64,000 bases of DNA from an uncultured virus (IMG/VR IMGVR_UViG_3300022555_000035). Lineage: Duplodnaviria > Heunggongvirae > Uroviricota > Caudoviricetes. A model generated the notes under the pieces. The model searched no databases. It was not told the origin of the DNA and saw only the letters and a program-made list of their open reading frames with translations. The translations under genes and the position numbers were made by a program. The stretch lies in the IMG/VR virus record IMGVR_UViG_3300022555_000035; one strand, given 5' to 3'. The number at the start of each line of letters is the position of its first letter. Positions within the stretch are counted from its first letter, which is position 1. Positions 13,868-64,000 of this stretch are shown one piece after another.

Positions 13868-13880
13868 TATCTAACCCCCT

Positions 13881-14069
13881 TTAATTCTTTATCAGTTTTT
13901 CTCTTCCACCAGATAACATTTGTTTACCTCGAAGCTTAGCAAGTTCTTGCATTGCCTTATCACGTTCTTGTTTAGTTACAGCTAACGCTTCGTCAGATAT
14001 ACGTAATTTGGTTCGTAGCTCCTCAATATACGTTTGCTGATCAATTAAGTGCTGTTTTGTACGTATCAT
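13881..14069 (-). CDS. Small coiled-coil protein
   Basis: ORF in operon orientation. Confidence 0.45.
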   Translation of the reverse strand: MIRTKQHLIDQQTYIEELRTKLRISDEALAVTKQERDKAMQELAKLRGKQMLSGGREKLIKN

Positions 14070-14082
14070 ATCCCAATCTATA

Positions 14083-14691
14083 CTATCGTACGCCTAGCAC
14101 TTTATGTAGTTGTACACCCATTCGTAAGTATTCAGGATATTGCATTACTAAACGAATAGCCTTTTCTATAGATTCCTGCTTATGACTTTCGGGTTGTAAC
14201 CAAATACGTCCTTTAGATACTGCTTTCCAAGCGATTACGTTAGGGTTGAAATCTTCTGTTACTACATATTTCAGTTCATGACAATTACAATATACGTCGT
14301 AATTGGGGGCTTTAGGAGAGCACGTAACCCAATCAATTGCCCAATGAGGATCGATCATTCTGGTGCCATTGGTTTCAATTGCTACTTTACGTGCCTCTTT
14401 ACGTCCTATCCACGGCTGTACATGAATGGCACGTATCAACTCTTTCAAGGGATGAATTGTAGGCTCACCTCCAGTAATTATGATCCGAGACGCAGTACTT
14501 TGCAAAACAATTTCTTCAATTGTCATTTGAGTTGCTTGTTCTTCTGTCCATGTCTCTTTTGAATCGCAGAAATCACATGCAAGATTACATCCAGCAAAGC
14601 GAACAAAAGTACTTACTATTCCCATATGACATCCTTCACCCTGGATAGACGTGAAGATTTCATTTACTGGAAACGTTATTACTTCATTCAT
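14083..14691 (-). CDS. queE: 7-carboxy-7-deazaguanine synthase (radical SAM)
   Basis: EIFTSIQGEG, RFAGCNLACDFCDS, ITGGEP, IETNG, SPK, LQP, QLHK. Confidence 0.95.
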   Translation of the reverse strand: MNEVITFPVNEIFTSIQGEGCHMGIVSTFVRFAGCNLACDFCDSKETWTEEQATQMTIEEIVLQSTASRIIITGGEPTIHPLKELIRAIHVQPWIGRKEARKVAIETNGTRMIDPHWAIDWVTCSPKAPNYDVYCNCHELKYVVTEDFNPNVIAWKAVSKGRIWLQPESHKQESIEKAIRLVMQYPEYLRMGVQLHKVLGVR

Positions 14692-15125
14692 AGTACTAAA
14701 TCCTCATCATCCAGTGCTTTCTGATTATTACCTATCTCCGGACAATCACGGCTCCAATCAGCGTGACTATTTGATGTTTCATATAGCCGTACATGATCAA
14801 GAATGCAATTGTACTCGAGGAATACCGGAGTTAGTGTGTTGACAATCCAGAGAACCATATGCTCGGCTGTAGGTTGGCTGAACAAAGGTTCATGATGCTC
14901 GTCGCATGTTTCGTTGAGATTGTAATGATCCAGCCGATCCAGAATAAACTTTTGCACTACGTTCTTGATGTTATGAAAATCGATGATCATTCCGTTGTTG
15001 TTAGGAATACCAGCCAAAGTAACTTCCAACTTGTAAGTATGTCCGTGCATACGAGAACAAGCACCGTTGTAGTTGTTCAACTGATGACAGGCTTCGAATT
15101 CAAACTTTTTTGTTACAGTTAGCAT
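14688..15125 (-). CDS. queD: 6-carboxy-5,6,7,8-tetrahydropterin synthase
   Basis: FEACH, CSRMHGHTY, LDH..LN, PTAE, LYET. Confidence 0.95.
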   Translation of the reverse strand: MLTVTKKFEFEACHQLNNYNGACSRMHGHTYKLEVTLAGIPNNNGMIIDFHNIKNVVQKFILDRLDHYNLNETCDEHHEPLFSQPTAEHMVLWIVNTLTPVFLEYNCILDHVRLYETSNSHADWSRDCPEIGNNQKALDDEDLVL

Positions 15126-15827
15126 TTATAAACACCTCCAATCAATTACTATTGCGTAGTCAATCGGGTCTCGTACTCCAAGTTGCTTAAAAGCAGCAAT
15201 TCTGCTAATGCAGGTAGAACATACTCCACACGCCGGCCTAGCTCCGTTATAGCAGCTATGTGTAAGCTCAAAGGGAGCATACGCTTCGAGTCCTCGGACG
15301 ACAACGTCATATTTGGTATCATTGACCAAAGGTGTGTAAAGTCGCACTTTATGGTATGTTCCGATGTAAATAGCGCATGCCATTGCTCCGATAAATTCTG
15401 CAGAACAGTCCGGGTAACTCCACGAGCGAGCATCTTCACTATGAGCTCCGTAACAAACCGTGTCTGCTCCCTCGACGAGTGCAAGTGCAGTTGCAGCGGA
15501 GAGAAGATTACCGTTCCGAAAGGGTACGTATGTAGGTGATACACCTATACTCTTGGCGAGTTCCTCATAAGTAGTTTCAGGATTCGGGCAATCGGCGTCA
15601 ATCAAAGTCGAGCCTGCGCCTGAGAAGATTGGCGGAAGTTCTTTAATGATGTGCGAAATTCCAAGTTCCTTGGCAATCAGTTTTGCCTGTTCCAGTTCGA
15701 CAAGATGCTTCTGTCCATAACCGAGTGACAAAGCGATGACATTGTCCGCGCCCAGCTGCCTGACCAACATAGCTGCGCACGTAGTTGAATCTAATCCTCC
15801 ACTGAGTAATACTACCGCTTTCTTCAT
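15126..15827 (-). CDS. queC: 7-cyano-7-deazaguanine synthase
   Basis: SGGLDS, YGQKH, TYVPFRN, YPDC, SCY...CG.C..C. Confidence 0.96.
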   Translation of the reverse strand: MKKAVVLLSGGLDSTTCAAMLVRQLGADNVIALSLGYGQKHLVELEQAKLIAKELGISHIIKELPPIFSGAGSTLIDADCPNPETTYEELAKSIGVSPTYVPFRNGNLLSAATALALVEGADTVCYGAHSEDARSWSYPDCSAEFIGAMACAIYIGTYHKVRLYTPLVNDTKYDVVVRGLEAYAPFELTHSCYNGARPACGVCSTCISRIAAFKQLGVRDPIDYAIVIDWRCL

Positions 15828-39029: not shown

Positions 39030-39542
39030 CTACGCGGAAACTGCGGAATTCGCAAGTTTGATCGCCTCGGCCAAGCCTTTGAATTTCTTGTCTCCACTGG
39101 CCTCGAGCCGAGCCGCCATCATAGACATGATAGCATCCATATCGATTACCGGAGCCTGCTGAATGATTGTAACCGGGCCGTTCTTCGATCCTTTAGGCGC
39201 AGCCGCAGCCGCAGTAAATGTACGGAAGCTTCCGCGGTTGTCGTACCAGATGAAAAAGCTTTCGTACAGCAATTCCCGCAGCGTGCCGTCGCCCTTCGGC
39301 CAGAGCTTGATGTGTTCGGCGGGAACCTTGTTGTTCCGGAGCAAGTAGTAAATGTACTGCGGCTCTTTGCCCATCCGTTTGGCTGCTTGGATCGGCGTGC
39401 AGAATGCCATCTCCGGAACGACTACCGGCTGGCTGGCTTCAGGCGCATCGGCCGATTGGTCCTGCAGGTCGGCAGACTCGTCCCGCAGCATGGCCTCTTG
39501 TTCCGTCGTGATGATTCCGGTTGTGTTGTTCAGTTCCATGAT
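39030..39542 (-). CDS. Xis/AlpA-like HTH protein
   Basis: TPIQAAKRMGKEPQYIYYLLRNNKVP; C-terminal EASGDKKFKGLA motif shared with paralogues. Confidence 0.65.
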   Translation of the reverse strand: MMELNNTTGIITTEQEAMLRDESADLQDQSADAPEASQPVVVPEMAFCTPIQAAKRMGKEPQYIYYLLRNNKVPAEHIKLWPKGDGTLRELLYESFFIWYDNRGSFRTFTAAAAAPKGSKNGPVTIIQQAPVIDMDAIMSMMAARLEASGDKKFKGLAEAIKLANSAVSA

Positions 39543-39623
39543 GATACCACCTTCCGCCGGGATTGCCGGCATTTAAGTACGACTGCTCTTGACTCTCGTT
39601 AACTTGCATTCGTCTTATGTCTA

Positions 39624-39966: not shown

Positions 39967-40299
39967 TTATTTACTGGTGTTCTTTTTAGTGATGAAGTTC
40001 TTGATCTGCGTAGCAAGACCTTTGTGCATCTTATCACCAGCTTCCAGGTCGCGAATCAAAGCATCCGCAGTGTAGATCAAGCCGGCAGCCGCTTTGTTGA
40101 TGCGGAGTTCTTCCTTGGCTTTGAACCAGGACAACGCGGGCTCGGTATCGATCATAGGCTGAAGACCAGAACCGTTAGCTTTCATGACATGAGAGACATA
40201 CTCCTTAGGAAAGGAACCATTTTCGAGCATAGGATAGATCTGTTGAGGGTACTTACCTACGAGACGAGCGAACTGGATTACCGTAGATAGGTTCGACAT
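39967..40299 (-). CDS. Xis/AlpA-like HTH protein
   Basis: VIQFARLVGKYPQQIYPMLENGSFP..PMID...ALSWF; LEAGDKMHKGLA. Confidence 0.65.
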   Translation of the reverse strand: MSNLSTVIQFARLVGKYPQQIYPMLENGSFPKEYVSHVMKANGSGLQPMIDTEPALSWFKAKEELRINKAAAGLIYTADALIRDLEAGDKMHKGLATQIKNFITKKNTSK

Positions 40300-40356
40300 A
40301 ATGCACCTCCGAAATAGCAGCCTCTCACCTGCTTATGTCCTCGCTGTTATGGAATA

Positions 40357-40692
40357 CTATTTGCCTACGCGATTGATCAAACGATGAAAGCCCATCCGAC
40401 GATAAGCCTTATCGCATTCCATGTACGTGTAGCCGACGCCTTGGAACTTGACAACAACAACATCCATCAGCTCGTCGCTGTCATAGGTTTCGAAGATCGC
40501 ATCCATGGCAGCCTTCAGGACATAGGTATCCTTCTGAAGTTTCGACCATTTGCCGTCGTAACGGGAATAGTACGCGCGATCGAATTCCTTCTTGTTGATG
40601 CCCTGGAAAACGATCTCCATGTCGTCGAAGTCGCTCGCTCCGTCGAGAACTGCGTTCAACGCGGCCAGGATAATTTTCTGTGTCTTAAACAT
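40357..40692 (-). CDS. Hypothetical early protein
   Basis: Flanked by repeat elements; GGAGGTG RBS. Confidence 0.65.
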   Translation of the reverse strand: MFKTQKIILAALNAVLDGASDFDDMEIVFQGINKKEFDRAYYSRYDGKWSKLQKDTYVLKAAMDAIFETYDSDELMDVVVVKFQGVGYTYMECDKAYRRMGFHRLINRVGK

Positions 40693-40756
40693 AGAACACC
40701 TCCGATATGAGAGCCTCTCACCCCTCTATGTCCTCGCTGTAATGGAATACTACTAT

Positions 40757-41221
40757 TTACTTAGGAAAGTAATCCCAGCACAACTTGGCAGCCACCTCCT
40801 CTAATTCTTTCATCTTTCTGGCACGCTCCTGGATATCGCGGTCATCGGTCGGAACGATTTTAGGCTCTTTCCCAGGACACAGCTCGAGAATGTAGAACTG
40901 GTCTACACGCCCTTCCCAGTACATCTTTTTGACTCTACCACAGTACACGCTGGAGTTCTGTGTCTTTCCTTCGCAAAGACCGGTCCAACCGGCTTTGCAG
41001 ATCAAAGAGACTTTGTAACGGTATGACTCCTTGCCATCATCACTGGTATACCGGATTAGAGAATCTGTTAGCTCGATATAGGCATGACGACGCATTATGC
41101 CTTCTGCATCAGGAAGAGACACCCAATTCTTCCAACCATCATTCTGGATGCCTTTCTTTTGAGTCTTGACGGGTACACTGAGACCTGTGCCAGAATTGAA
41201 TTGATTGATCTTTTTCTCCAT
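40757..41221 (-). CDS. Hypothetical early protein
   Basis: Flanked by repeat elements; AAGGAGG RBS. Confidence 0.65.
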   Translation of the reverse strand: MEKKINQFNSGTGLSVPVKTQKKGIQNDGWKNWVSLPDAEGIMRRHAYIELTDSLIRYTSDDGKESYRYKVSLICKAGWTGLCEGKTQNSSVYCGRVKKMYWEGRVDQFYILELCPGKEPKIVPTDDRDIQERARKMKELEEVAAKLCWDYFPK

Positions 41222-41321
41222 GGTGAAATAATACCTCCTTAAGGTATGTTTGTAAGCCTCTCACCTTACGAGTCCTCACTGTATGACCCGAAAATACGCG
41301 ATAAAGAACTACCAGAAGCGA

Positions 41322-41801
41322 TTAATCATTGAGATATACAGCGTTTAAAGCGCTATATGCGCGTCTTACATCCTCCACTGTATTTTTGTTGTAATGATTC
41401 GCGATCGCGTCGTCGGACATGCCTTCCGACCTTTCAAGAAGAGCTTCCAGAGCACCAAGCGCGACAACCAAATCATCCATAGCGATCATCATCTGTATCT
41501 CTCTAGGAGCTTTTCCGCAGAACATTTTGTACAGTTCGCGAGTTCTGAAACTGATATAGATACTGGTACAGCGCTTCCAGGATTCTGGAAACTGCTCTAC
41601 GAGTATTCTCATGTTAGTCACCAGGTTCTGTGGATACACGTAGAAACGGTTGCGCAACGGATTACACCACATAACCACATAGCCATCCTTGTCGATACTA
41701 TCGATATAGAACGTATGATTCTCGAGGTTGACGCCAGTGCAGATAGCGACGCCTTCAGTAGACCAGGACAGGATAGCTTTGTTGATGTTGTTGTTAGACA
41801 T
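41322..41801 (-). CDS. Hypothetical early protein
   Basis: Flanked by repeat elements. Confidence 0.65.
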   Translation of the reverse strand: MSNNNINKAILSWSTEGVAICTGVNLENHTFYIDSIDKDGYVVMWCNPLRNRFYVYPQNLVTNMRILVEQFPESWKRCTSIYISFRTRELYKMFCGKAPREIQMMIAMDDLVVALGALEALLERSEGMSDDAIANHYNKNTVEDVRRAYSALNAVYLND

Positions 41802-41863
41802 GAATAAACACCCCTAATTTTTACACGGCCTCTCACCCGTTGAGTCCTCTCTGTTATGGAATA

Positions 41864-42310
41864 CTATTGATGCTTACGGCAATTCGGATTTTTATTAACA
41901 TATTGCTTACAGCCGTAGCAATCAGCACAATCGGAGCAGGTGTCGCATGCGCAGCTGTGGCAAGGGTTCGCCGGATACAGTCTGCCGCACATCTTGTTGA
42001 TGATCAGCAAACCAGAGGCGAAATTGGCTTTGATGTCATCGGGCTGGTCGTGAGAATCAGCGATAACATCAGCATAGTCATTGTTTACGAGATCGAGACA
42101 ATGTCCCAGCTGCAACTGGAGCGCTTTGTTCGACTGGTGATACTGCTGGACGTCGTAGAGTACGGAGCTGATGGTCTCGAACATCATCCAGCAACCTTCG
42201 CCGTCTTGGTGTTCGGCTTCAGCGATGTACTCTTCGCCAAGGATAGGGAACGCGATGCGGATGGACTCTTTGCATTCGTTGATCCAGGATTTGTTCGTGA
42301 AATTAATCAT
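41864..42310 (-). CDS. Hypothetical early protein with Cys-rich C-terminus
   Basis: CHSCACDTCSDCADCYGC; GAGGTG RBS. Confidence 0.65.
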   Translation of the reverse strand: MINFTNKSWINECKESIRIAFPILGEEYIAEAEHQDGEGCWMMFETISSVLYDVQQYHQSNKALQLQLGHCLDLVNNDYADVIADSHDQPDDIKANFASGLLIINKMCGRLYPANPCHSCACDTCSDCADCYGCKQYVNKNPNCRKHQ

Positions 42311-42384
42311 GGTGACACCTCTACTATTTTTGCAGCCTCTCACCTGCGTAGTCTTCTCTGTAATGACCTAGATCGCGAGGGATG

Positions 42385-42789
42385 TTACTTCGTCTCAGTG
42401 GCAGGCGCGTTTTTGGCGGTCCAGTACTTGCGAAGAGCTTTGCCCAATTTCTTGTCGTCCGCTTCGACCATCGCTATGAACGCTTCTGCAATCATCGCAG
42501 GATTAGCTTCGACTCTCTGAACGGCCTTCTTGTCTTTGACCTGTTCACGAGCGGCAAAGAACGCTTTGGCTTCGGTGACTTTGATGTACTGCTGCTCTTC
42601 GCCGTTCTTGTCACGGCGAATGACGATGAGCTCCTTGGGAACGGAACCGTTCTTGACCATGGAGTACATGTGAGGACCTTGGATCCCTAACACCTTGGTA
42701 CCGAAGTGGTAAATAGACATTTCATCGTAGCTCTTCACCATTCCATGCTCTGTCACCGTCCGCAGATAGCCTTCATAGTCTTTTAACAT
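42385..42789 (-). CDS. Xis/AlpA-like HTH protein
   Basis: SIYHFGTKVLGIQGPHMYSMVKNGSVPKE; VEADDKKLGKAL; AGGAGG RBS. Confidence 0.6.
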   Translation of the reverse strand: MLKDYEGYLRTVTEHGMVKSYDEMSIYHFGTKVLGIQGPHMYSMVKNGSVPKELIVIRRDKNGEEQQYIKVTEAKAFFAAREQVKDKKAVQRVEANPAMIAEAFIAMVEADDKKLGKALRKYWTAKNAPATETK

Positions 42790-42907
42790 GTTGACTCCTC
42801 CTACTATTTGATTTTTACTAACGTAGTCTTTCCATCCTTGTCGGTTACTTTGACGTAGCCCTGAGTGCCTCTCACCACTCTAGTCCTCGCTGTTCGGGAA
42901 CTGTGGG

Positions 42908-43321
42908 TTAGACTAGTCGACAATCCACCTCCAAGCCATCTTCGTCCAACGCGTACCAGGTTACGTATTCACCCATCTCGGGATAGATGAGCGGGAGAAG
43001 TTCATTGACGATCGCTATTGCTTTAGCCTGAGTATCAACTTCCCACTGTACGTCTTTGATTCCAGTACCAGGAGAAAATCCTCCAGACACTTCGAATTCG
43101 TGATACTTTTTGGTATACTGATAGTACAACTCATCGCTATGAGTACCGAAATCCACTCCGTAGTTGATGATCTGAGACTTGATGTCGAAATCTTCGACGC
43201 AGATGTTGATGCGGTCCAGAGCACCCAGTACAAGAGCTTCAAGCTCTCCTTTGGTAATCCTGATGTTGTTGACATTGAAACTGATCGAGAAATTGTTGAC
43301 TTCTGTTACTTTCTTGGACAT
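42908..43321 (-). CDS. Hypothetical acidic early protein
   Basis: Flanked by repeat elements. Confidence 0.65.
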   Translation of the reverse strand: MSKKVTEVNNFSISFNVNNIRITKGELEALVLGALDRINICVEDFDIKSQIINYGVDFGTHSDELYYQYTKKYHEFEVSGGFSPGTGIKDVQWEVDTQAKAIAIVNELLPLIYPEMGEYVTWYALDEDGLEVDCRLV

Positions 43322-43437
43322 ACTACACCTCTACTATTTTTGCAGCCTCTCACCTGCGTAGTCTTCGCTGTAATGGCCATTGACCGGATAGATTAGATAG
43401 CAGCTACCATATCACCCTCCTTTCTGATAGGCTCGAC

Positions 43438-43466
43438 AAAAGGGACTAATTTCTTAGTCCCCTTTA
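43438..43466. terminator. Hairpin, probable terminator
   Basis: AAAGGGACTAA..TTAGTCCCCTTT. Confidence 0.6.
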
Positions 43467-43472
43467 GCTTGC

Positions 43473-43685
43473 CTACCGATGGGTGTTGTAGCGTACGTCT
43501 TCTACGCAGCTCAGGAGGAAGTCGTCCATGATGTCGGAGTAATTTCTCATCCAATAATCCTGATTGGCAGGATTATTGTTGGTCTGAGTACGAATCAGCG
43601 CTTTGATGATGTTACGACGACGATTTACGGGGAGTTGATTAGCTATGGCTCCGAGTTCGCGAATGATTGTTTCTACGGTTGACAT
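43473..43685 (-). CDS. Small hypothetical early protein
   Basis: GAGGTG RBS after repeat element. Confidence 0.6.
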   Translation of the reverse strand: MSTVETIIRELGAIANQLPVNRRRNIIKALIRTQTNNNPANQDYWMRNYSDIMDDFLLSCVEDVRYNTHR

Positions 43686-43745
43686 GTATAACACCTCAGA
43701 TAATTAAGGGCCTCTCACCCCTTGAGTCCTCACTGTTACGAACTA

Positions 43746-43955
43746 CTACCCGAGGAACTTGTTGGCAGCTTGCAGAACGAGCGGAGACATTTCGTTGGAA
43801 TGATAACGGACCCAGTAACGGACATTGTTGACATTACCGTTGGCAAAGGAGATCATGAGGTTGGAAAGGATACGAACGATACGCTCTTCGGCGAGACCAT
43901 TAGACTGCAGGTCACGAGCAACGATACTGAAATTACGGATGTCTTGAAACAACAT
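43746..43955 (-). CDS. Small hypothetical early protein
   Basis: GAGGTG RBS after repeat element. Confidence 0.6.
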   Translation of the reverse strand: MLFQDIRNFSIVARDLQSNGLAEERIVRILSNLMISFANGNVNNVRYWVRYHSNEMSPLVLQAANKFLG

Positions 43956-44049
43956 TATGAACACCTCGATTATTTTGAGGCCTCTCACCCTCATAGTCCT
44001 CACTGTTACGAACTACTATTCGTCTAAAGCGGCTCGCGAACGTTTATTT

Positions 44050-44333
44050 GCAGTTTAATGTCTTGCTTAGGACAAGGCACATGTTTCTTCGGTAACATGT
44101 GCTATCGCTACGATTGCGATCGGCTATACTTCGGAGATCCACCGAAGTGCCTCCTCGCGATCAGCAGCTCCACATTCGATGGCCGCATCGATAGCCATCT
44201 CAGTGTCCCTCTTTTCGAGGTCGTCTGTGGAGCCATAATTATACTCCATCAGATCTCGGATCATTTTGGAATAACCCATGATGTCACCTCCTTTTTTATC
44301 GGATTGACAGTTTAACGTCTTGTCTAGGACAAG
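44050..44333 (-). repeat. Two copies of a ~27-nt pseudoknot-like element (44050-44076, 44306-44333)
   Basis: CTTGTCCTAAGCAAGACATTAAACTGC and CTTGTCCTAGACAAGACGTTAAACTGTC. Confidence 0.7.
44124..44279 (-). CDS. 51-aa acidic protein (below ORF-track cutoff)
   Basis: AAGGAGGTG RBS; MGYSKMIRDLMEYNYG... Confidence 0.6.
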   Translation of the reverse strand: MGYSKMIRDLMEYNYGSTDDLEKRDTEMAIDAAIECGAADREEALRWISEV

Positions 44334-44342
44334 TAGTACAAA

Positions 44343-44471
44343 TCATACAAAGTTGATGCTTCCGAGAAGACAGACAACCAGAGCAATGATCGCCACGATG
44401 ATCTGCTCAACCCACCACTTGAAAGAGAACTGATACGCCGAGTTGGCTTTGACCTTTGACATTGTAGTCAT
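44343..44471 (-). CDS. 42-aa membrane peptide
   Basis: AAGGAGGTG RBS; C-terminal TM IIVAIIALVVCLLG. Confidence 0.55.
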   Translation of the reverse strand: MTTMSKVKANSAYQFSFKWWVEQIIVAIIALVVCLLGSINFV

Positions 44472-44612
44472 ATTATTTCACCTCCTTTTTCGCTTGGATA
44501 TGCTCTTCTGCTGGTTTTGATCCGTTCCTCATAACCATAATTTGTCTTTCCATAGTATCCCCTCCTATTATTCTGATAACTTGTTTATTATTATTCATAA
44601 CAATCACTCCTC

Positions 44613-45083
44613 TTATTTACGAACCGTATACATACGTAGATGTATGTTTTCTCGAACAGCATAGGAAGCATACGTATATTTAACTTTACCATTATATGTT
44701 GTAGCGAATTTTCTCGCATCGATTTCAATTTCTTGATTCCAATAACTATTAGCTTCCATATCTTCAAGCATGAAAGCCATACCAATATTTTCATATTGCC
44801 ATATATGCCAAAACTCATGTCGGATAGTTTCAAGTACTTCTTCGGTAGGACGTAATGCTCCTATTTTAACGATACCCGTTTGCATACTAAACGAACCAGT
44901 AGGAGGAGCTTCCAAATCTTCAAAGTAATCGAAGTCTGTTATTCCTATATACTCCATCACATCAAAGCGATAGAGATCTGCGTCGATATTATGTTCTTCA
45001 CAAAGAGCTCTGAAATACTTAGTATACTCTTCGCGGAGATGTTCCATAACAGTGGCAGATACTATGTTAGTCAACATAATCAT
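44613..45083 (-). CDS. HEXXH metallopeptidase-like protein
   Basis: IRHEFWHIWQY...Y....EIDARKFA. Confidence 0.7.
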   Translation of the reverse strand: MIMLTNIVSATVMEHLREEYTKYFRALCEEHNIDADLYRFDVMEYIGITDFDYFEDLEAPPTGSFSMQTGIVKIGALRPTEEVLETIRHEFWHIWQYENIGMAFMLEDMEANSYWNQEIEIDARKFATTYNGKVKYTYASYAVRENIHLRMYTVRK

Positions 45084-45252
45084 CAGCTCCTTTATTGTAT
45101 CCTATTTATCTTCATTATCCATATCTTCTAATAGCTTAGCTATTTCGAATTTTAATATGAACAAATCGATTGCGAGACTATCATAGTCTCTCTTGTCTTG
45201 TTGAAGTTCTTTTTCTAAATCGATCATGTTGTTCATCTCCTTCATCATTATC

Positions 45253-45648
45253 TTATTTAGCAAAATCATAATAATTTTCATGTACTATGAAGCTTTCGAT
45301 ATTATAATATTCAGCACCATAAGCTACATAATCATAATAATCATTACTAGCAACTACAACAATTTTATCTTCTTTAGTAATGTTATTTTTATTTAACAAT
45401 TCTTTAATAACTAAATTACCCCATATTAATTTATCATTATGATTTAATGAACCTAAATATAAATCATAATTATTCATTACAAATTCTAATTCAATTAAAC
45501 CAAATTTACCCGATATAACATATACTTTATCACATGTTTCAATTAATTTATTTACATTATTTTGAAAGAATGGACTAGAATAAAGTTCTGCAGCTGAATG
45601 AGCACCACTTAATTTTTCTTTTGAACAAGAAAGCAAACCAATAATCAT
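45253..45648 (-). CDS. DUF6884-like protein (very AT-rich gene)
   Basis: LSCSKEK...A.ELY.SPFF...ISGKFGLI.......YD..L pattern. Confidence 0.6.
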   Translation of the reverse strand: MIIGLLSCSKEKLSGAHSAAELYSSPFFQNNVNKLIETCDKVYVISGKFGLIELEFVMNNYDLYLGSLNHNDKLIWGNLVIKELLNKNNITKEDKIVVVASNDYYDYVAYGAEYYNIESFIVHENYYDFAK

Positions 45649-45749
45649 AATAACACTTCCTTACTAAAATTTAATAATTAAATTATTATTATTTACTATA
45701 TCCGGGTGGATATAATAATAATTTAATTACTATATATGGCGCGCACAGG

Positions 45750-45832
45750 ACAAACAAAATTTACAAAAAGAGCTCGCTATACAAACAAAATTTACAAAAA
45801 GAGCTCGCTATACAAACAAAAATTACAAAAAA
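45750..45832 (+). repeat. 31-bp tandem direct repeat (2 full copies plus 1 partial) upstream of the terminase genes
   Basis: ACAAACAAAATTTACAAAAAGAGCTCGCTAT at 45750 and 45781. Confidence 0.85.
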
Positions 45833-45912
45833 GTCAACACCTGTCCCCTCATCCCCTTTTAGCAAACACCCCCGGGGGCCCTGAATTGGTCACCCCCCTG
45901 ACCCAAAAAAAG

Positions 45913-45942
45913 TTGACACCCCTGCAAGATGTGTAGTATAAT
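45913..45942 (+). promoter_or_regulatory. Promoter of the packaging/structural operon
   Basis: TTGACA-18 bp-TATAAT, followed by AAGGAGG. Confidence 0.75.
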
Positions 45943-56248: not shown

Positions 56249-59200
56249 ATGGCGAAAAAGGGCGACAAGGAAATAAAAGTAGTACTAAATGCGGATCTAA
56301 ACATTAAAAAAGTATTAGCCGCGTTACCTGCATTATCAAAAGCAGTAGAGTCATCTACTAGCGGACTATCTGCAGAGTTGATTAAAGCTCTTAATGAAGG
56401 TTTAGGAGTTATTGAGCAGCATAGTGCATCGATATTAAAAAAGTTTCGGGATGACAAACAAGTAGGTAAAGCTTCTGCGATTAAAGCAGCTTTACCAGAT
56501 TTTAAAAACCCGGCCGACTTCCTGTTGAATTTGAAAGATATGGAGCCTGCAATTGCGCAGTTGAAGAAACTGCTCTCTGATGCTGCCTATACAGATATTA
56601 CACCTGCTGTACTTAACTCGGCAAAGCAAGTAGCTAGTTCTAAAAAGAAAATAAATGACGCTGCTAATAAAGAAGAAGTAAAAGCAACTAAAGCAAAAGT
56701 AGACGAGCAGTTAGCGGCAATTAAAGCGGCGGCAGCTGAGGCAGTAGCTAATGCGCCTACGTTAAAAGTTACTCTCGAAATAGAAGCAATTAAAGCTAAA
56801 ATGGATGAAGCTGCTATTGCTCGGGATCCGAAAGCGTATGAAGCACTACGTAAAACATATGAGCAAAAGAAATTACAAGAGTCACAAGAAATTGCGAAAG
56901 CTACCAAAGTAGAGTCAGATAGACTACTTGATATAGAGAAGAAAGCTGCTGTTGAGCGGCAACGTGTATTAGATAATATTAATCTCGAACAGCGATTAGC
57001 AGCGCAGCGTCGGCGTAAAAAGCAAGAAGACGATGATAAAGAAGCTGCTAGATTGGCTTTATTTAAACCCGGAGAGCGTTTAGATGAAGCTTTTGGCATG
57101 ACTGTTACCCCTCCTTCTACATTGCGTAGAAAAGAGCTTATAGGAAGAGTGTTTACACCCGAAGAAAAAGAAGAGCTTCGTAAGGACGCTGAAGAACGCC
57201 GTAAGGCAATGACAGAGCAACAGAAGATAGATGATGCTCAAGCAGCAAAAGATTTTGCAGAAGAGCAAGCATTACTTGAAAAACGCGAGACGCTTCGAAT
57301 TAACGCCGCTTTGCGTAGATATAGCAGGACTAAAACAAACCAACGCATTATGCGAGATACAGCACGTAAAAGTACTATTGCTGATGTATATCCTATAGAA
57401 GAACTTCCTACATGGGATCCTGAACAGCCAGCAACTAAGCCCATGGGAGCTACCGATAACTATATAGCACATCAACAAAAATATGCAATTACTACTGCTC
57501 AATCGGAAGCAGCTACTTTAAGACTGGTTACTGCTTTGGAAGAGCTAAAAGCCGCACAACAAGGAGTATATTCTCTCGATACCGAAACAAATAAGAAAAA
57601 GTACCTCTATGATGATCCTGGCGTAGCTCCTAAAGTTGCAAGCGACGCGTGGATGACACGTTCTATTCAAACGGCAGCACCTGGCGTAGAAGGTACGATG
57701 ACTGATATACTTCACATGACTGACAGAGGTAAGCTGTCGCAGAAAATGGCTACACAGTTACCTATGCTCCAGAAACTTTTGAATGATCCGAACTTACTAC
57801 TTGTCGGTAATAATATTGCCTATGACGTATACCAGATGATACAAAACGGTTTCCAAGTTCAGAATAAGCCGTTGAATTTGAATACTTTTAGTAATATTAT
57901 ACGAAGCGAAGCTACAGCAAAGCCGCTAGATTTGCAACAACTAGCAGAAAGGTATGCCGCTGATGAGTATAAAAAAGGAGGCGCAAAAGCAGTTGTTAAA
58001 GACTCGGGAGTATCACAGACTACTAATAAAGGACAGAAGTTCTTAAAGCCTACAACTATTGACTATGGTAACTGGGATGCTGAAGCTGCAGTAAGTATTT
58101 ATGCTGGTATGATGAAAGAGCTCAGAGCTGAGCTTACTACTAAATATAAAAATGCGGGTGTAAATCCTGCAGACGTAGATAAAGTAGTTGACCAGGTAGT
58201 TAAGCAGTTAGTCGACCTAGGCGTACGGATGTCTCAAACACTAGTAACCAACTTCTATAAAGAGTCTAGTAAAATAGGCGGAGCCAATCAAGCAGATCCA
58301 CGAATAAAAGAAAAAATAACTCGTCCCGCAATGATGTCTTTCGTAAATGCTCCTATACTTGCTGAGCAGATAAAAAATAATGCTTTACCTGATGCTGCAC
58401 TTGCAGCACTAACGGCACAACAACGAATTGCAGCTGCAAGAGATTTACCAGCACAGGCAATTAAACTTGCTGGTGGTGTAATTGGTACTGATAGTGGTTT
58501 AAGCCCCGCTAATCTTATTAAACAATTAGAAAATCAGATAAACATATATATGCAGGCTCAGAAGGAAGGCAGGCAAGGAAATGTTACGCCTACCTTTTTA
58601 GAGTCTTTTAAACATATACAGGCACAATTTTCTCCTGGTTCTTTGGTAGGACAGATTGACAGGAGTTCTGCCGATCCTAAGAAAATTATTAAGCAATTTC
58701 AATCATTGAAATTATCAGCGTCTATGGTGCCTAATGAGATGAAGCTTTTTGAGCCTACGGTAGAAAAGATCTCAGATAAAGCTAATGCGATACTGAAAGT
58801 AATTGATGAATTAAAATCCATCAGTGTATATATGAATGCCGAAAAGAGTACGGCTTCTAGAAAAGGAGCGGCTTCTGAGTATTTACAATTCACCAATCGT
58901 TTGGAAAATATGAAATCTACTGCTATGCTGATCAATAAGCTGAACACACAGTTCAGAGAAATGTTACTGAGCGGTGCCGATTACGATAGTGCAGCTGTAC
59001 AAGATGTACTGGCACAAATAAAGAAACAGACAATACCGTTTGATAAGCAAATTGCAGAAGCTGCATCGATCACAGTACCAAAAACTAAAAACTTCCCATC
59101 GCTGCAACAGCCTTATGACAATATTATAGATAGAATGTTTGACATGATTCGCGATGCGCGTAGTATCAATGACGTAAGCTTATCTACTCCTAAAGGATGG

Positions 59201-62200
59201 ACCGGTACACGTGCTGCATTACCTGCAGAAACATATGCTTTAAAAGATATCAAAGCATTAGCTGCACAAGTTAAAGGATCTGCTGCTCTTACTGAAAGCG
59301 GTGTAGCTACAGGAGCAGTTTCTGCGGACATGCTATCTAGTCTGCAAAAATCTATACTAGCAGACAATGCTAATATGATTATTTCTCAACTTGGTAAGCA
59401 AACACTGGACTTCAAGAAAATGGTTACTAAATTAGGTAAGATGGAGACCAATATTTCTCCCGCAGCACAGCAGAATCTGATTGCTTCTATGGCAACAGTA
59501 CAGCAAGCTGCTAAATATCAACAACGTATGGAAAAATATTTGGGCGGCCCTGTAGCGCAAGCAAATCCGGCAATTACTGATGATGTCAGAAGTAAAATGG
59601 AAACACGTGCCGCTACGATGATGCATCTGGCGTTCCGTCAGTTCCAGGATACGTTAACTACTGCATTATCTGGAGCAATGAAAACACCCTTCGCGGTAGA
59701 CGCACGTAAGCTACTGGATAATATGCCTTTAGTCAACGCAGGATTCCAACGTGAAAAAGGCGACATGGAACAATTCCAATCTAAACTGTACGCCAATGCG
59801 GTATATTCATTATTGGGTAGAAAAGAACGTACTACTCATCGAGTAGAAGACAGTGATATATTTCAGCAAGCTAGTCAGTTTACTATTGAAGCAAACAATA
59901 TGCAAGAACGTCTTTATGCAAAAGATGATATAGGTCAACGTGTTGCATTTGAAGACCAGCGAACTACTGCCACTTTCTATAAGAATGACAAAGCAACCAT
60001 AGGCGCTAAAGTAACTGAATTGGAAGCAATGGTACGAGATATCACTGCTAGCTTAGACGAATTAAAGGCTAAAGCAGTAGAATATGCTACTCCTCCTCCT
60101 GATTCAGAAGCTGCTTGGAATCCTAAAATAGTTGAAGCTAATAAAGCTGCTATTGGTAGAACTCAGGATTTATTGGCAGATGCTAAGGCCGAGGTAATGC
60201 AGGTTAAAACATTACTTGACCATCGTGTAGTAATGGATTCTCAACTACTAGCATTTAAGGAACTGGATGAGACAGGGCGTACAGGTATTATAAACCCTGC
60301 AGCTATGGAAAATGCAGTGCGTAATGAGAAATCTATACGTGATGCTATAGTAAGATTGACTAGTCAAATAAAGATTGCTCAAGAAGGTCTGAAAAGTGGC
60401 GTAAAGTATGCTATTAAAAAAGGTGTACCTGCCGATAGTGCAATTTTAGCCGACTATCAAGCAAAGGGTATAAGTACTCTTGATTCGGCTAATGAGCGAT
60501 TAAGTCTACTACATAAACAATACATAGAAGTATTGTCAGCTAAACAGGAAGCAACAGATGCCATACTCGGCGCTACACCTGAAGGCAAAGAGAAGATAGC
60601 CGTACGTGACCTGAAAGCTAAAAAAGAGCAAATTCTTCGCCAGACCCGAAAGGCGTCTCCAGGCGAACGGGCCGAATTGACTGCACAATTAGATAGCATC
60701 GATAAAGAGTTATCACAGTATGTTGATTCCATTGATGTACGGTTAGCTAGTATTAAAGAGTTGTTAAAGATACATCGTGCAATAGCTACTGGTACAGATG
60801 CTGATAAAGTATATGAAAAGTCTTTAATAGACACCAGGGAAGAACTGAAGCGTACACGTCGCGGAGCCCCTCCAGGCGGAGGCGCCTCTGATAGAGAAAA
60901 ACAAAGAGTTACTTTACAAGATATAGAAGCTGCTAAATTAGCTTATACTGCTGATTATACTCGTGCTGTTACTACTGGTGGTACTGCAGGAGAATTGCAG
61001 AGTATTGAAAAGGCTATATCTGATTTAGAATTAGCTAGAGTATTAGAAATCAAAAAATATACTGCACAACAAATGGAAGATCCAGGACTGATGCAGGCTC
61101 TTCAACGAGAAGCGAATGCTACAGCGATGGCAATGATTAAGAAATCAATGAATAATGCTCTAGCGTCTGCTCCTACAGCAAGTGTAGAATCTGTACGCTT
61201 AAATATGGAGCTTACAGCTCTTAATAAACGTACCAAAATGCCGTTAACAACTGAGCAATATCGTTCGGCGGAAAAGAAAGGGCTTGAACAAGAACGCCTA
61301 GGACTGTTACAAGATCTTGGTAAAGCTCCTGTAGATTCTGCTGAGTATAATAAGCTGGTCAAAGCTCTTAATACACTCGACACCGTTTTTGAAACAATGT
61401 TTGGTCTCTATAATAAGCGTATATCTACTGCACGTGCTTTAATAACAAATTTAGTTGCTAAAGGTGATATGGAGTCTCCTGCATATGCAGCAGCTATAAA
61501 ACAGTTAGAAGAGGCAAAGAAACAAGCATTTTATGGTAAAGGAAATGCTCCCGGAACCTATCAAGCAAAAGCAGCACAGGAAGATAAAATAGCAAGTTCT
61601 GTCGGATTAGTCAATGCACGTTTAATGCAGTACGTAAACATGGCTGCTACTTCTGATCCTAGCACTGCAGATAATAAACGTAGTTTACAAGATATTGAAG
61701 CAGGATTAAGTCATGCTATCTTTGATAAACTGAAACTCATAAGCAAGACACCTATGACACAGCGTGATACTGCGTGGGAAAGAAGTTTATGGATAGAAGC
61801 GGACGCTCAAGCGTATATGATGATAAAAAATACGCTGGAGAAAAAGCTCAGTAGCGTATATGCAGGAGAAAAACCTGAACAAACTAATAATATTCAAATA
61901 GCTTACGAAGCTTTAAGGTTACGTAAACCTGCACCTCTTGGTTCTGGTAGGCCATTAGATGCAAAGATAAACGATTTACAGAAGCAATCTCAGGCAGAAA
62001 TTACCAAGATAATGGGAGAATATTCTGCTGGACAGTTTACAGAGATGTATACTGCTATTAAGAATGCTCTTGCAAATCCACAGTCTGCTTTAGGTAGTCT
62101 ACAGGCACAGATAAATCAGGCAATGGGAATAAAAAATACCGCTGCAAATTCTCAGAAAATGATGATGGCTGGTCCTATACAGGCAATGAAAATGTCTGCT

Positions 62201-64000
62201 ACTACTGGGTTAAAAGATATCATGGACCAGGTAATGACTACTACTCCTAAAGGATCTGCTGGGTATCCTGCACTAATGCGACAAGCAGAAGCCTATAGAG
62301 ATACACTAACTAAAATTGCTAATATTAATAAAGAAGTATTCGGCGAGCATGCCACTGGTGCACAGGAGAAGACAAGAGGATTCTTCAGTTCTATGATTCG
62401 TGCAGCTACTGCTTTAGGAGCTGCTTGGTATATGATTAGTCGTATACAAGTAGCATTCCAAAGTCTTGTAATGCCGGGATTGACATATGCAAGATTAATT
62501 GAGACTACTAATGTAGGATTTGCTGCCATACTGATGTCAATGACTAAGTTGAATGGTCAGTCACTTACATGGGTTCAATCAATGAATATGGCCGCTGATT
62601 TATCTAAAGAAGTGACAGATAATGCTCTTCGTTTTGGACTAGATGCAATTGAACTACAAAAGCTCATTCAAGGTGTCGTAGGTGCAGGTCTCGGTTCTAA
62701 TATGTCACTCGAACAAATTATCAGATTATCTACAGTTGCAGCCTCTGCTATTAAGCAAATTGGATTACCTGATACACAGTTCATTCAAGAAGTTCGAGAT
62801 ATGATGCAGGGCGGTATTCAGATACAGAGTTCCGTTCTTGCTACGCAGTTAGGTTTGACTGACGCGATTGTCAATCAGGCCCGTGCATCTGGAACGGTAT
62901 TTGAAATGCTTATGGAACGGATGTCTGGTTTCGCTGCTGGACAATCTGCCGTATTTGATACTCTTGACGGAAAAGTAAACATGACTGTTGACGCTTTCAA
63001 ACGCCTTTCAGCTGAAGGCGTGGCTCCGTTGATTAATACGGCAAAGCCTGTGCTCGATTTCCTCTTGAAAGAAATGATTACAAACTTTGACGCTTTCAGA
63101 AAAGGTGCTTCTCCTGAATTCAATACTACTTTTATAACAAAAATGCAAGAGGCAATACGTACTTTTATAAAAGTATGTAGAGATGCTATTAATGTACTTG
63201 AAGTTCTATACAATGCTTTTAAAATAGTAAGTAAAGTATCAGATTGGTTACCTGGTTCTGGTACTTCTCAATTAGCAGCAGTACTTATTTACTGGTTCGG
63301 TATTAGGAAAATAATGGTAGCTCTTCCTGCAGCAGGTAAAGCAATTGTAGCAATGTATCAAGAAATTAAAGCGGCTGCATACGCTGCATCAATTGCACAA
63401 ACACTTGCTGGAGGAACTGCAACTACAGGTACTACTGCTGTTGCCGGTGCTGCTGTTGCCGGTGCTGCTTCTAGAGTAATATTAGGCTCCGCAGGCCAGG
63501 TAATAAGTACTGTAGCACCTGCAGCTGCCGCTGGTACTGGTATAGCAGGAGCACGTGCTCTTGTAGCCGGCGGAGGATTAGGTGCGGGCATATTAGCTGC
63601 TTTTGGCGGCGCTGCTGGTATTGCTAGTGTTGCTCTTCCAATAATATTAGCAGTAATTGCTACAGGCGCGATTGCATATTATTTAAGTAAGAGCGGTTAT
63701 GGTAGTGCTTTACCTACAGAAAAAGCTCCTTCTATAGCAAACTTTACTGCAATGCGTAAAAAGTATGATAGCCCTCTCGAAGGTGAAGATGCTGGAGAGA
63801 TTGGTAGTCTCTACGAAACCTATCAACGAGAGATAGTTCTTATTGATGACAAGCGTAAAGAACTGTTAGAGACGTTCCGCGTAGGTAATATTGATAAAGA
63901 AAAGCTCACCACCGAACTTACCGCCCTATATGAAAAAGAAGTTGCAATGGATATCGAGCGACAAAAAGTTGTTAAAGAGGCTCTCGAGAAGCAATTACTA
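56249..64000 (+). CDS. Very large tape measure protein (>2,580 aa, truncated by the window) with an embedded exonuclease domain
   Basis: ATG 56249 after AGGGGG; the same frame is open wherever read and at the window end; Ala-rich helical sequence; TMP-like core at ~62350-63100; TM-rich Gly/Ala region ~63250-63690. Confidence 0.85.
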   Translation, partial: MAKKGDKEIKVVLNADLNIKKVLAALPALSKAVESSTSGLSAELIKALNEGLGVIEQHSASILKKFRDDKQVGKASAIKAALPDFKNPADFLLNLKDMEPAIAQLKKLLSDAAYTDITPAVLNSAKQVASSKKKINDAANKEEVKATKAKVDEQLAAIKAAAAEAVANAPTLKVTLEIEAIKAKMDEAAIARDPKAYEALRKTYEQKKLQESQEIAKATKVESDRLLDIEKKAAVERQRVLDNINLEQRLAAQRRRKKQEDDDKEAARLALFKPGERLDEAFGMTVTPPSTLRRKELIGRVFTPEEKEELRKDAEERRKAMTEQQKIDDAQAAKDFAEEQALLEKRETLRINAALRRYSRTKTNQRIMRDTARKSTIADVYPIEELPTWDPEQPATKPMGATDNYIAHQQKYAITTAQSEAATLRLVTALEELKAAQQGVYSLDTETNKKKYLYDDPGVAPKVASDAWMTRSIQTAAPGVEGTMTDILHMTDRGKLSQKMATQLPMLQKLLNDPNLLLVGNNIAYDVYQMIQNGFQVQNKPLNLNTFSNIIRSEATAKPLDLQQLAERYAADEYKKGGAKAVVKDSGVSQTTNKGQKFLKPTTIDYGNWDAEAAVSIYAGMMKELRAELTTKYKNAGVNPADVDKVVDQVVKQLVDLGVRMSQTLVTNFYKESSKIGGANQADPRIKEKITRPAMMSFVNAPILAEQIKNNALPDAALAALTAQQRIAAARDLPAQAIKLAGGVIGTDSGLSPANLIKQLENQINIYMQAQKEGRQGNVTPTFLESFKHIQAQFSPGSLVGQIDRSSADPKKIIKQFQSLKLSASMVPNEMKLFEPTVEKISDKANAILKVIDELKSISVYMNAEKSTASRKGAASEYLQFTNRLENMKSTAMLINKLNTQFREMLLSGADYDSAAVQDVLAQIKKQTIPFDKQIAEAASITVPKTKNFPSLQQPYDNIIDRMFDMIRDARSINDVSLSTPKGWTGTRAALPAETYALKDIKALAAQVKGSAALTESGVATGAVSADMLSSLQKSILADNANMIISQLGKQTLDFKKMVTKLGKMETNISPAAQQNLIASMATVQQAAKYQQRMEKYLGGPVAQANPAITDDVRSKMETRAATMMHLAFRQFQDTLTTALSGAMKTPFAVDARKLLDNMPLVNAGFQREKGDMEQFQSKLYANAVYSLLGRKERTTHRVEDSDIFQQASQFTIEANNMQERLYAKDDIGQRVAFEDQRTTATFYKNDKATIGAKVTELEAMVRDITASLDELKAKAVEYATPPPDSEAAWNPKIVEANKAAIGRTQDLLADAKAEVMQVKTLLDHRVVMDSQLLAFKELDETGRTGIINPAAMENAVRNEKSIRDAIVRLTSQIKIAQEGLKSGVKYAIKKGVPADSAILADYQAKGISTLDSANERLSLLHKQYIEVLSAKQEATDAILGATPEGKEKIAVRDLKAKKEQILRQTRKASPGERAELTAQLDSIDKELSQYVDSIDVRLASIKELLKIHRAIATGTDADKVYEKSLIDTREELKRTRRGAPPGGGASDREKQRVTLQDIEAAKLAYTADYTRAVTTGGTAGELQSIEKAISDLELARVLEIKKYTAQQMEDPGLMQALQREANATAMAMIKKSMNNALASAPTASVESVRLNMELTALNKRTKMPLTTEQYRSAEKKGLEQERLGLLQDLGKAPVDSAEYNKLVKALNTLDTVFETMFGLYNKRISTARALITNLVAKGDMESPAYAAAIKQLEEAKKQAFYGKGNAPGTYQAKAAQEDKIASSVGLVNARLMQYVNMAATSDPSTADNKRSLQDIEAGLSHAIFDKLKLISKTPMTQRDTAWERSLWIEADAQAYMMIKNTLEKKLSSVYAGEKPEQTNNIQIAYEALRLRKPAPLGSGRPLDAKINDLQKQSQAEITKIMGEYSAGQFTEMYTAIKNALANPQSALGSLQAQINQAMGIKNTAANSQKMMMAGPIQAMKMSATTGLKDIMDQVMTTTPKGSAGYPALMRQAEAYRDTLTKIANINKEVFGEHATGAQEKTRGFFSSMIRAATALGAAWYMISRIQVAFQSLVMPGLTYARLIETTNVGFAAILMSMTKLNGQSLTWVQSMNMAADLSKEVTDNALRFGLDAIELQKLIQGVVGAGLGSNMSLEQIIRLSTVAASAIKQIGLPDTQFIQEVRDMMQGGIQIQSSVLATQLGLTDAIVNQARASGTVFEMLMERMSGFAAGQSAVFDTLDGKVNMTVDAFKRLSAEGVAPLINTAKPVLDFLLKEMITNFDAFRKGASPEFNTTFITKMQEAIRTFIKVCRDAINVLEVLYNAFKIVSKVSDWLPGSGTSQLAAVLIYWFGIRKIMVALPAAGKAIVAMYQEIKAAAYAASIAQTLAGGTATTGTTAVAGAAVAGAASRVILGSAGQVISTVAPAAAAGTGIAGARALVAGGGLGAGILAAFGGAAGIASVALPIILAVIATGAIAYYLSKSGYGSALPTEKAPSIANFTAMRKKYDSPLEGEDAGEIGSLYETYQREIVLIDDKRKELLETFRVGNIDKEKLTTELTALYEKEVAMDIERQKVVKEALEKQLL

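Follow-up and report, generated by a model that had tools for sequence, protein, structure and literature searches.

A covarying box-and-hairpin element placed before small genes of an uncultured phage and of other mobile elements in Chloroflexota and Bacillota

A 64,000-nucleotide stretch of an uncultured tailed phage (IMG/VR record IMGVR_UViG_3300022555_000035), called the window here, contains nine copies of a short intergenic element between positions 40308 and 44012 on the minus strand. Each copy is composed of a box with the sequence ACAGNGA(G/A)GAC, two or three further nucleotides, a 4- to 5-base-pair stem, and the loop GTGAGAGG. The element was confirmed to be real and widespread, to lie outside Rfam 15, and to be without a description in the searchable literature. 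The initial annotation of this DNA treated it as a feature of the phage's own gene array. It is instead a family of at least 226 unique instances with 75 distinct 5-base-pair stems (among the matches listed), carried by viral contigs, metagenomes, and prophage-like islands or islands resembling integrative conjugative elements (ICE) that are unrelated to each other and belong to two phyla, Chloroflexota and Bacillota. We tentatively read the element as a portable RNA-level expression module that would act on the downstream cistron through translation, mRNA stability, or both; on sequence evidence this is plausible rather than probable.

Sequence and copies of the element

The pattern ACAGNGARGAC-N2-5-N4-GTGAGAGG matches the window nine times, on the minus strand only (40321 to 44006), and has no match in 100 dinucleotide-preserving shuffles of the window. 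Taken alone, the 8-nucleotide loop GTGAGAGG would be expected 1.33 times and is found 10 times; the tenth occurrence (37808, plus strand) is inside the spacer of a perfect sigma-70-type promoter. The initial annotation had proposed a covariance-model check. A model built from 41 mixed instances and run over the window returns exactly the nine copies at 41.9 to 50.4 bits, and the next best site scores 6.3 bits. The nine copies are listed below, all on the minus strand.

c1, 43968 to 44012: box ACAGTGAGGAC, stem TGAGG/CCTCA, loop GTGAGAGG, 50.3 bits
c2, 43698 to 43742: stem AAGGG/CCCTT, 50.3 bits
c3, 43333 to 43377: box with GAAGAC, stem GCAG/CTGC, 46.8 bits
c4, 42855 to 42899: stem GAGTG/CACTC, 41.9 bits
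c5, 42323 to 42367: box with GAAGAC, stem GCAG/CTGC, 45.3 bits
c6, 41816 to 41860: stem ACGG/CCGT, 50.4 bits
c7, 41244 to 41288: stem GTAAG/CTTAC, 47.7 bits
c8, 40701 to 40746: stem GAGGG/CTCTC with one G.U pair, 50.0 bits
c9, 40308 to 40353: stem AGCAG/CTGCT, 50.0 bits

The description of nine minus-strand copies with a fixed loop, whose stems differ yet always pair, is borne out by these matches. The same is true of two further observations made from the letters alone. Copies c3 and c5 share approximately 50 near-identical nucleotides with one mismatch, and the genes behind them are unrelated (blastp E 0.7); the other copies have little contiguous identity in common. Some copies begin at the upstream stop codon: in c2, c6, and c9 this codon, TAG, is the start of an extended consensus, TAGTA(G)T..ATAACAG.

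All nine consecutive gaps of the array hold a copy, and one small gene lies behind each. The start codon is 20 to 34 nucleotides past the C that closes the loop in eight of the nine copies. The exception is c4 (copy at 42893), where the start codon is 77 nucleotides away and a 5-codon mini-ORF (open reading frame) encoding MERLR (42818 to 42835) lies between. The nine downstream proteins have no Pfam match and no PHROG match. Those behind c4 and c9 are paralogs of each other and of the product of a motif-less gene at 39030 to 39572. Other features within the array are as follows.

39967 to 43955 (minus strand): nine small genes of 69, 70, 137, 134, 148, 159, 154, 111, and 110 amino acids, one behind each copy
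43440 to 43470 (minus strand): terminator-like hairpin of 13 base pairs followed by UUUUGU (−25 kcal/mol, z −5.5), between the c2 gene and c3
43393 to 43410 (minus strand): 5-codon mini-ORF encoding MVAAI with a strong Shine-Dalgarno (SD) sequence, as read from the sequence, between the terminator-like hairpin and c3

Hairpin structure and covariation

The 5-pair helix of the window copies is paired in 93.3% of its 45 cells, compared with 60.3% in column shuffles and 27 to 42% when the 3' partner is slid along the sequence; four of the five pairs have changed on both sides. For the 41 mixed instances, pairing holds in 91% of cells, and covariation scores 0.759 compared with 0.152 for shuffles. 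A set of 111 distinct metagenome instances (among the matches listed) is 95.7% paired, with five of six pairs changed on both sides and a covariation score of 0.629 against 0.168 when shuffled and at most 0.13 when slid; this alignment was fitted to the covariance model, which somewhat favours structure. Strong covariation in both the window copies and the metagenome instances supports the folded, single-stranded element first proposed.

The invariant parts are the box, ACAG-N-GA(G/A)GAC, and the loop with its closing pair, G-GUGAGAGG-C, for a total of about 19 letters. Among the matches listed, the spacer between box and helix is 0 to 5 nucleotides long (usually 2) and the helix has 4 to 8 base pairs (usually 6). 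The hairpin is 16 to 24 nucleotides long, with its conserved letters in the loop. In Paenibacillus copies, the distance from GAC to the loop reaches 10 to 11 nucleotides.

When two loop positions were relaxed in the search, the only variants that bear a stem had GAAA (three copies, and one more with a 3-base-pair stem) or GCGA (two copies). Variants outside the GNRA type (GACA, GATA, and GGCA) lack a stem and match by chance. A search with the four flanking loop positions left free yielded one true variant among the matches listed, with A instead of G at the first position. The closing G-C pair is turned to C-G once. Since the loop variants of true copies are limited to GAAA and GCGA, the tip is read as a putative GNRA tetraloop closed by a U.G pair and stacked on a G.G pair.

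Pairing of the upstream with the downstream flank is no better than in shuffles (p = 0.19), and neither is pairing of the box with downstream sequence (p = 0.69). The single-sequence folds of the nine copies are no more stable than those of shuffles (z −1.5 to +0.2). Taken together, the covariation, the flexible spacing, and the restriction of loop variation to GNRA argue for an element that folds as a single strand, most simply in mRNA.

Placement before genes

The orientation of the element is constant, with the downstream ORF always ahead. Among the matches listed, the loop-closing C is 20 to 29 nucleotides before the start codon in 89 of 122 cases, and the SD window starts 4 to 9 nucleotides past the helix in 109 of 152. 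Directly 3' of the stem, 66 of 85 cases have an A, and the sequence continues as an A-rich tail. The upstream stop codon is 0 to 19 nucleotides from the element, or inside the box, in 46 of 93 cases. Several copies can occur in one locus: 19 of 100 metagenome loci (among the matches listed) contain two or three copies, 230 to 1100 nucleotides apart, each before a small ORF.

Occurrence in other genomes

A scan of IMG/VR with a partial box and the loop gave 66 loci, which can be sorted into two classes. Loci with ACAG in front have stems of 4 to 8 base pairs and an SD sequence and start codon behind; those without ACAG have one or two chance pairs. The covariance model matches all 29 carrier records to which it was applied. 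When prokaryote species were scanned with one genome each, 57 loci were obtained, most of them in metagenome-assembled genomes of Chloroflexota (Anaerolineales, Dehalococcoidia, Chloroflexia, and Herpetosiphon). About 12 of the 57 are in Bacillota, including isolates of Paenibacillus, Tepidibacillus, Mesobacillus, and Cytobacillus. The metagenome scan added at least 125 loci with at least 135 unique instances. Five host genomes were examined and have one or two copies each; in these, the element is specific to mobile elements and is not used by host genes.

The element was not recognised as a named family in the initial annotation, and the Rfam searches agree. Rfam 15 has no match at gathering score across the 64-kb window. 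At E ≤ 10 in the region 40000 to 44400 there are four weak matches, none over a copy, and at E ≤ 1 in 10 related loci there is no match over the element. GenBank phages have no blastn match to the array, and a 38-nucleotide copy gave chance matches only. The motif description was not found in the literature searched. It is also absent from the six searchable supplements of a catalogue of 10,006 candidate structured viral RNAs (PMC10690425), whose files 1, 2, and 4, outside those six, may list the motif unnamed.

Small temperate phages of 17 to 20 kb from Chloroflexota have one to three copies each. These are inside the early-lytic operon, at the head of the recombination-gene block, and a few hundred bases past a divergent promoter region. 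The 18.5-kb phage G002 has three copies, followed by the recombination-gene block and then by a strong terminator (10935 to 10910) before the integrase and late genes. The phage G021 has a single copy about 850 nucleotides behind divergent sigma-70-like promoters, after one small ORF.

One class of Chloroflexota island, present in many metagenome-assembled genomes, has the order terminator-like hairpin, 8 to 10 nucleotides, element, second conserved hairpin, gene for a 76-amino-acid protein, primase, and clamp-like gene. In locus L169 (2501 to 5027) and about 25 similar loci, the second hairpin has a conserved C.A mismatch. The 76-amino-acid protein is highly conserved and has no Pfam match, and the primase is of the CHC2/Toprim type. 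L169 has a sigma-70 consensus promoter about 450 nucleotides upstream of the element. A Paenibacillus island (L145, 1948 to 4892) has the order HTH_3 gene, terminator, element, gene for an 84-amino-acid protein, ArdA antirestriction protein, two small ORFs, and RadC, and looks like the leading or early region of an ICE.

The downstream genes are varied and include an Erf-type annealing protein, a PHROG "exonuclease" family, anti-repressors, a PAPS-reductase-like protein, and many ORFans. The most common family (47 loci) is uncharacterised and about 100 to 140 amino acids long. A tyrosine recombinase gene is present in 11 of the 19 carrier genomes. In the 17- to 20-kb phages it is part of the lytic operon and follows the element, in the same orientation, at a distance of one to three genes (L106, 9258 to 10427, minus strand; L107, 2424 to 3632; L108, 5491 to 6891).

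A family of small proteins with a cysteine cluster (LCG...CP..C.RVCHCP.G) and an arginine-rich helix is encoded 200 to 900 nucleotides upstream of the element in six small phages (L106, 13662 to 14033, minus strand, with homologues in G009, G012, G014, G020, and G022). It has no Pfam match, and a hidden Markov model of the family matches only its own six members. It is a possible RNA-binding partner of the element.

Association with homology breakpoints

Homology breakpoints, gene insertions, and order swaps cluster at the element in relatives of carriers other than this phage. Three relatives were compared with the phage G002. In L166 two genes have exchanged places, with the ends of the homology blocks falling at copies of the element. 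L340 carries two additional genes, one immediately after copy 1 and one immediately after copy 3; it also has a homologous gene of 67/68 amino acids precisely without the element, with homology on both sides.

A comparison across 120 loci gave 3072 internal blastn ends, of which 14.4% are at most 30 nucleotides from an element; uniform placement would give 3.1%. Counted as unique breakpoints, the figures are 0.88 per element and 0.42 per motif-less, SD-led gene start, approximately a twofold difference. Two factors inflate this enrichment: alignments run on to the edge of a conserved element, and the instances are related to each other. A related-locus search with the 347-amino-acid neighbour gene returned only a near-identical contig. 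The cassette shuffling suggested in the initial annotation has partial support (the order swap, the insertions, the presence or absence of the element, and the twofold breakpoint excess), all of it in relatives of other carriers, the relatives found for this phage being near-identical.

Proposed function

The element would be a cis-acting RNA module of about 45 nucleotides, specific to mobile elements and with three parts in the mRNA. The first part would be the single-stranded, purine-rich box ACAGNGA(G/A)GAC. The second, after 2 to 3 nucleotides, would be a helix of 4 to 8 base pairs and any sequence, capped by the G.G pair, the U.G pair, and the GNRA tetraloop. The third would be an A-rich tail of 4 to 9 nucleotides that runs into the SD sequence. 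The target would be the cistron, or translationally coupled block, directly behind the module. A partner, which could be a conserved host machine or a small protein that the mobile element encodes and that evolves fast, would bind the invariant box and loop on the upstream (standby) side of the ribosome. Such binding would set the translation of the downstream gene and, with the 5' hairpin and the strong SD sequence, would also set the lifetime of that mRNA segment. Because such a module is self-contained, it would also mark the sites where genes are inserted, swapped, or lost.

What the sequences show is the fold, the invariant letters, the placement, the distribution, and the association with breakpoints. 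A role as RNA, a post-transcriptional mode of action, and a binding partner are inferred. The presence of one copy per gene points to action on each downstream unit rather than on a whole operon. The constant orientation and the short A-rich link to the SD sequence place the element upstream of genes where translation operators and enhancers act.

Several observations weigh against this module. Strong intrinsic terminators are found 5 to 35 nucleotides upstream of the element in at least four lineages (the Chloroflexota island class, the Paenibacillus ICE-like island, Clostridiales L134, and Mesobacillus L151). An RNA element located behind such a terminator needs read-through, and a promoter would be the simpler explanation. 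Read-through transcripts are possible in L169 and L151, each of which has a sigma-70-like promoter ahead of the terminator. The tight spacing to the SD sequence may only reflect compact genomes, as the upstream stop codon is equally close. The small temperate phages have the element before the first gene of a block only, which fits a signal at the head of a unit equally well. No partner protein common to all carriers was found by blastp clustering of the 19 carrier genomes, and clustering of 1468 neighbouring ORFs likewise gave no protein family common to all. The G-U pair at 40714, from which the initial annotation argued for an RNA-level element, is present in c8 but is poor evidence. An excess of G.U over A.C on the sense strand, by 13 to 3 in the metagenome set and by 16 to 7 cells over the 75 distinct stems (both among the matches listed), speaks for the RNA level, but the latter asymmetry is not significant (p = 0.09). 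The instances are not phylogenetically independent. Finally, the sequencing runs that carry the region 40000 to 44400 number nine, all of them DNA from freshwater and lake studies, with no RNA run among them.

Alternative explanations

Processive antitermination in the nascent RNA, either nut-like (a small arginine-rich protein with Nus factors) or put-like (acting on RNA polymerase with no phage protein), is considered unlikely. The resemblance to lambda nut boxA/boxB pointed out in the initial annotation does exist in the layout: a conserved linear box lies 5' of a short spacer and a short hairpin, the fixed loop rather than the stem carries the identity and would be of the GNRA type, as judged from the inferred fold, and both are found in the early operons of mobile elements. 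The terminator-like hairpin of the array comes after copies c1 and c2, the strong terminator of G002 comes after its three copies, and the G021 copy lies behind its divergent promoters as nutR lies behind cro. The lack of a common protein partner and the absence from host genes would fit the put-like variant. However, one or two nut sites per operon suffice in lambda, and up to nine copies in 3.7 kb, one per gene, would be superfluous for processive modification. Rather than one promoter-proximal site upstream of terminators, at least four lineages have the strong terminator upstream of the element and not downstream. The element also hugs the SD sequence, its box shows no evident resemblance to the boxA consensus, which is bound by NusB/NusE, and its putative tetraloop on a U.G/G.G platform differs from the pentaloop of nut. 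No N-like protein was identified: the 19 carrier genomes have no protein family in common, and Pfam gave nothing of this type in the window, although searches of either sort can easily miss arginine-rich antiterminators, which are very short and diverge strongly. A DNA-level promoter for a non-canonical factor or polymerase is judged to have a similarly small chance of being correct. The box would be its upstream element, the loop its downstream element, and the conserved A behind the hairpin its start; the stem would attenuate upstream transcripts, as in T4-type PeSLs, or be read single-stranded, as in N4. This promoter reading is kept alive by the strong terminators just upstream, which leave no space for a further one. 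No sigma-70-like site of at least 10/12 lies on the minus strand within the 3.7-kb array (40300 to 44020), though the phage has 12/12 sites elsewhere. The earlier statement that the element contains no TTGACA/TATAAT stands for the array; a single 9/12 match, no better than chance, overlaps c7 at its 3' arm and SD region. T7-type promoters likewise occur one per gene, the first base past the stem is usually A, some copies read TTGACAG, and PeSLs are a case of a stem-loop inside a promoter (PMC2839356, accessible part). Speaking against a promoter, the distance between box and loop varies by about 5 nucleotides, and a double-stranded site needs neither covariation nor a loop that varies only within GNRA. 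As read from the sequence, the loop also misfits a −10 hexamer, having either no A at −11 or no T at −7, and a −10-like hexamer is lacking in GC-rich copies. Neither the 17- to 20-kb carriers nor the ICE-like island encode a polymerase or sigma factor that could be detected, the genes of the five hosts are without the element, and the upstream promoters of L169 and L151 make read-through possible.

A site for recombination or gene capture, with effects on expression being secondary, is the least probable of the explanations considered. The hairpin would then be a DNA substrate for a structure-specific recombinase, as in integron attC sites, or a homology patch, as in PeSLs. Such a role is favoured by the order swap in L166, the two insertions behind copies and the presence or absence of the element in L340, and the excess of alignment ends and breakpoints, as well as by the 50 nucleotides common to c3 and c5 before unrelated genes and the tyrosine recombinase behind the element in small phages. 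The breakpoint excess is inflated as described above, and copies other than c3 and c5 have too little contiguous identity for homologous exchange. No recombinase was found by Pfam in the window, and none is common to all 19 carriers. A recombination site would not need strict orientation or SD spacing. Integron attC sites have R''/L''...L'/R' boxes at the base of an imperfect hairpin of 57 to 141 nucleotides and depend on the integron integrase. The element has a hairpin of 16 to 24 nucleotides with its conserved letters in the loop, no R'/R'' boxes, and no tyrosine recombinase in the window. It is also conceivable, though rather doubtful, that the box and the GNRA platform dock directly on a conserved host machine (the 30S subunit or RNA polymerase) with no protein of their own and also act as a docking point behind which captured genes insert. 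Direct docking would explain the identical letters across two phyla, the lack of a common partner gene, and the absence from host genes. It would make the element a bacterial counterpart of a viral internal ribosome entry site or of HK022 put RNA; newly captured genes would be expressed at once, and the element would be an integron-like platform for gene capture without an integron. The remaining probability belongs to some explanation not considered here.

Several other candidates were set aside. One 16S rRNA (Tepidibacillus) and one 23S rRNA (Mesobacillus) hold no complement of the box or the loop. The sarcin-ricin loop has GAGAGGAC in common with the element, which was taken as coincidence. 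An anti-loop RNA was not retained, the sole minus-strand CCTCTCAC being located in a promoter spacer. The PyrR binding loop shares GAGAGGC with the element, but no Rfam match was obtained. CsrA sites, sigma-H, ECF, and sigma-54 promoters, the preQ1-I aptamer, k-turns, CRISPR-repeat mimics, and REP/RAYT elements were provisionally dismissed.

Comparison with known systems

The early genes of T7 also have structured RNA at each gene boundary of a polycistronic operon. These are RNase III sites, and RNase III needs a double helix of about 20 base pairs, whereas the element has a stem of 4 to 8 base pairs with a sequence-specific loop and a box. In the mom mRNA of phage Mu, a hairpin upstream of the SD sequence is bound by the small zinc-binding protein Com, which sets translation; this is a single site for one gene. 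The element likewise has a hairpin before the SD sequence, and the Cys/Arg-rich family is encoded upstream of it in six small phages. Unlike the Mu site, the element occurs in many copies, no Com-like protein was found in the window, and the partner role of the Cys/Arg-rich family is only putative.

The SAS of Cluster K phages, as far as described in the accessible part of PMC3203893, is a 13-bp sequence at the position of the ribosome-binding site. Each genome has 11 to 19 copies, all in one orientation and placed shortly before the start codons of some of the non-structural genes, which belong to different families; a function in translation initiation has been proposed. The associated ESAS consists of 17-bp inverted repeats conserved in sequence; departures from the repeat do not support RNA pairing, and the authors favour a DNA-binding protein (PMC3203893). 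On this partial account, the element is similar in its position before start codons, its copy number, and a function still to be found. It differs from SAS and ESAS in sequence, in having arms that are free and covary rather than being conserved, in its fixed loop, and in its occurrence in unrelated elements of two phyla.

T4-type PeSLs are composed of a sigma-70-type promoter and a terminator stem-loop (PMC2839356, accessible part). The element resembles them, to the extent described there, as an intergenic module with a stem-loop between stop codon and SD sequence, in arrays of small ORFans, that marks gene insertion, loss, and exchange; rearrangement junctions at the module were found here in relatives of other carriers. 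Unlike PeSLs as so described, the element contains no strong sigma-70-type promoter or sigma-70 hexamers, has an invariant loop, and by sequence is unlikely to be a terminator, with A rather than U behind a hairpin of only 4 to 8 base pairs.

Other features of the phage genome

The window is that of a tailed phage: from 45929 onward its plus strand encodes terminase, portal, capsid, and tail proteins, and its minus strand has the replication genes. Additional features are listed below.

37825 to 37796 (minus strand): perfect 12/12 sigma-70-type promoter (TTGACA-18-TATAAT) in a 530-nucleotide AT-rich gap before the 347-amino-acid gene
45913 to 45942 (plus strand): second perfect promoter of the same type, at the head of the packaging and structural operon
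44333 to 44308 and 44077 to 44051 (minus strand): two copies of a second repeat upstream of the array, a hairpin CTTGTC...GACAAG followed by (G/A)TTAAACTG
about 45750 to 45840 (minus strand): approximately 2.5 tandem copies of a T-rich unit of about 31 nucleotides, in the divergent region just upstream of the first minus-strand gene
44400 to 45650: AT-rich block (GC 0.35 against 0.47 in the array) with a DUF6884 protein (45256 to 45648) and a weak DUF3920-like match (44616 to 45083)
13075 to 15827 (minus strand): GTP cyclohydrolase I (13075 to 13641), a radical-SAM QueE-like protein (14086 to 14691), PTPS/QueD (14691 to 15125), and QueC (15129 to 15827)
3534 to 5180 (minus strand): ThyX-type thymidylate synthase split by an intein with an HNH endonuclease domain
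56249 to 64000 (plus strand): open frame of at least 2583 amino acids behind the tail genes, running off the window

The AT-rich block may be of different origin from the array. The four adjacent genes at 13075 to 15827 form a preQ0-type pathway, and for this reason the phage may put a 7-deazaguanine base into its DNA. The long open frame matches one PHROG of unknown function, has a weak Pfam match to a 3'-5' exonuclease (residues 493 to 625), and has no sequence match in the PDB.

Significance

If the proposed reading is correct, the element is a new, sharply defined RNA family in which about 19 invariant letters surround a freely covarying helix. In many uncultured phages and integrative elements of Chloroflexota and Bacillota, where gene control is almost unknown, it would mark the genes that are expressed first. 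It could then be used as a sequence tag for early, host-takeover, and anti-defence genes; one carrier has ArdA close behind. Its size of about 45 nucleotides is suited to reporter, pull-down, and structure work in Bacillus. Alongside the T4-type PeSLs, it would be a second, independent example of an expression signal that doubles as a seam for gene exchange between phages.

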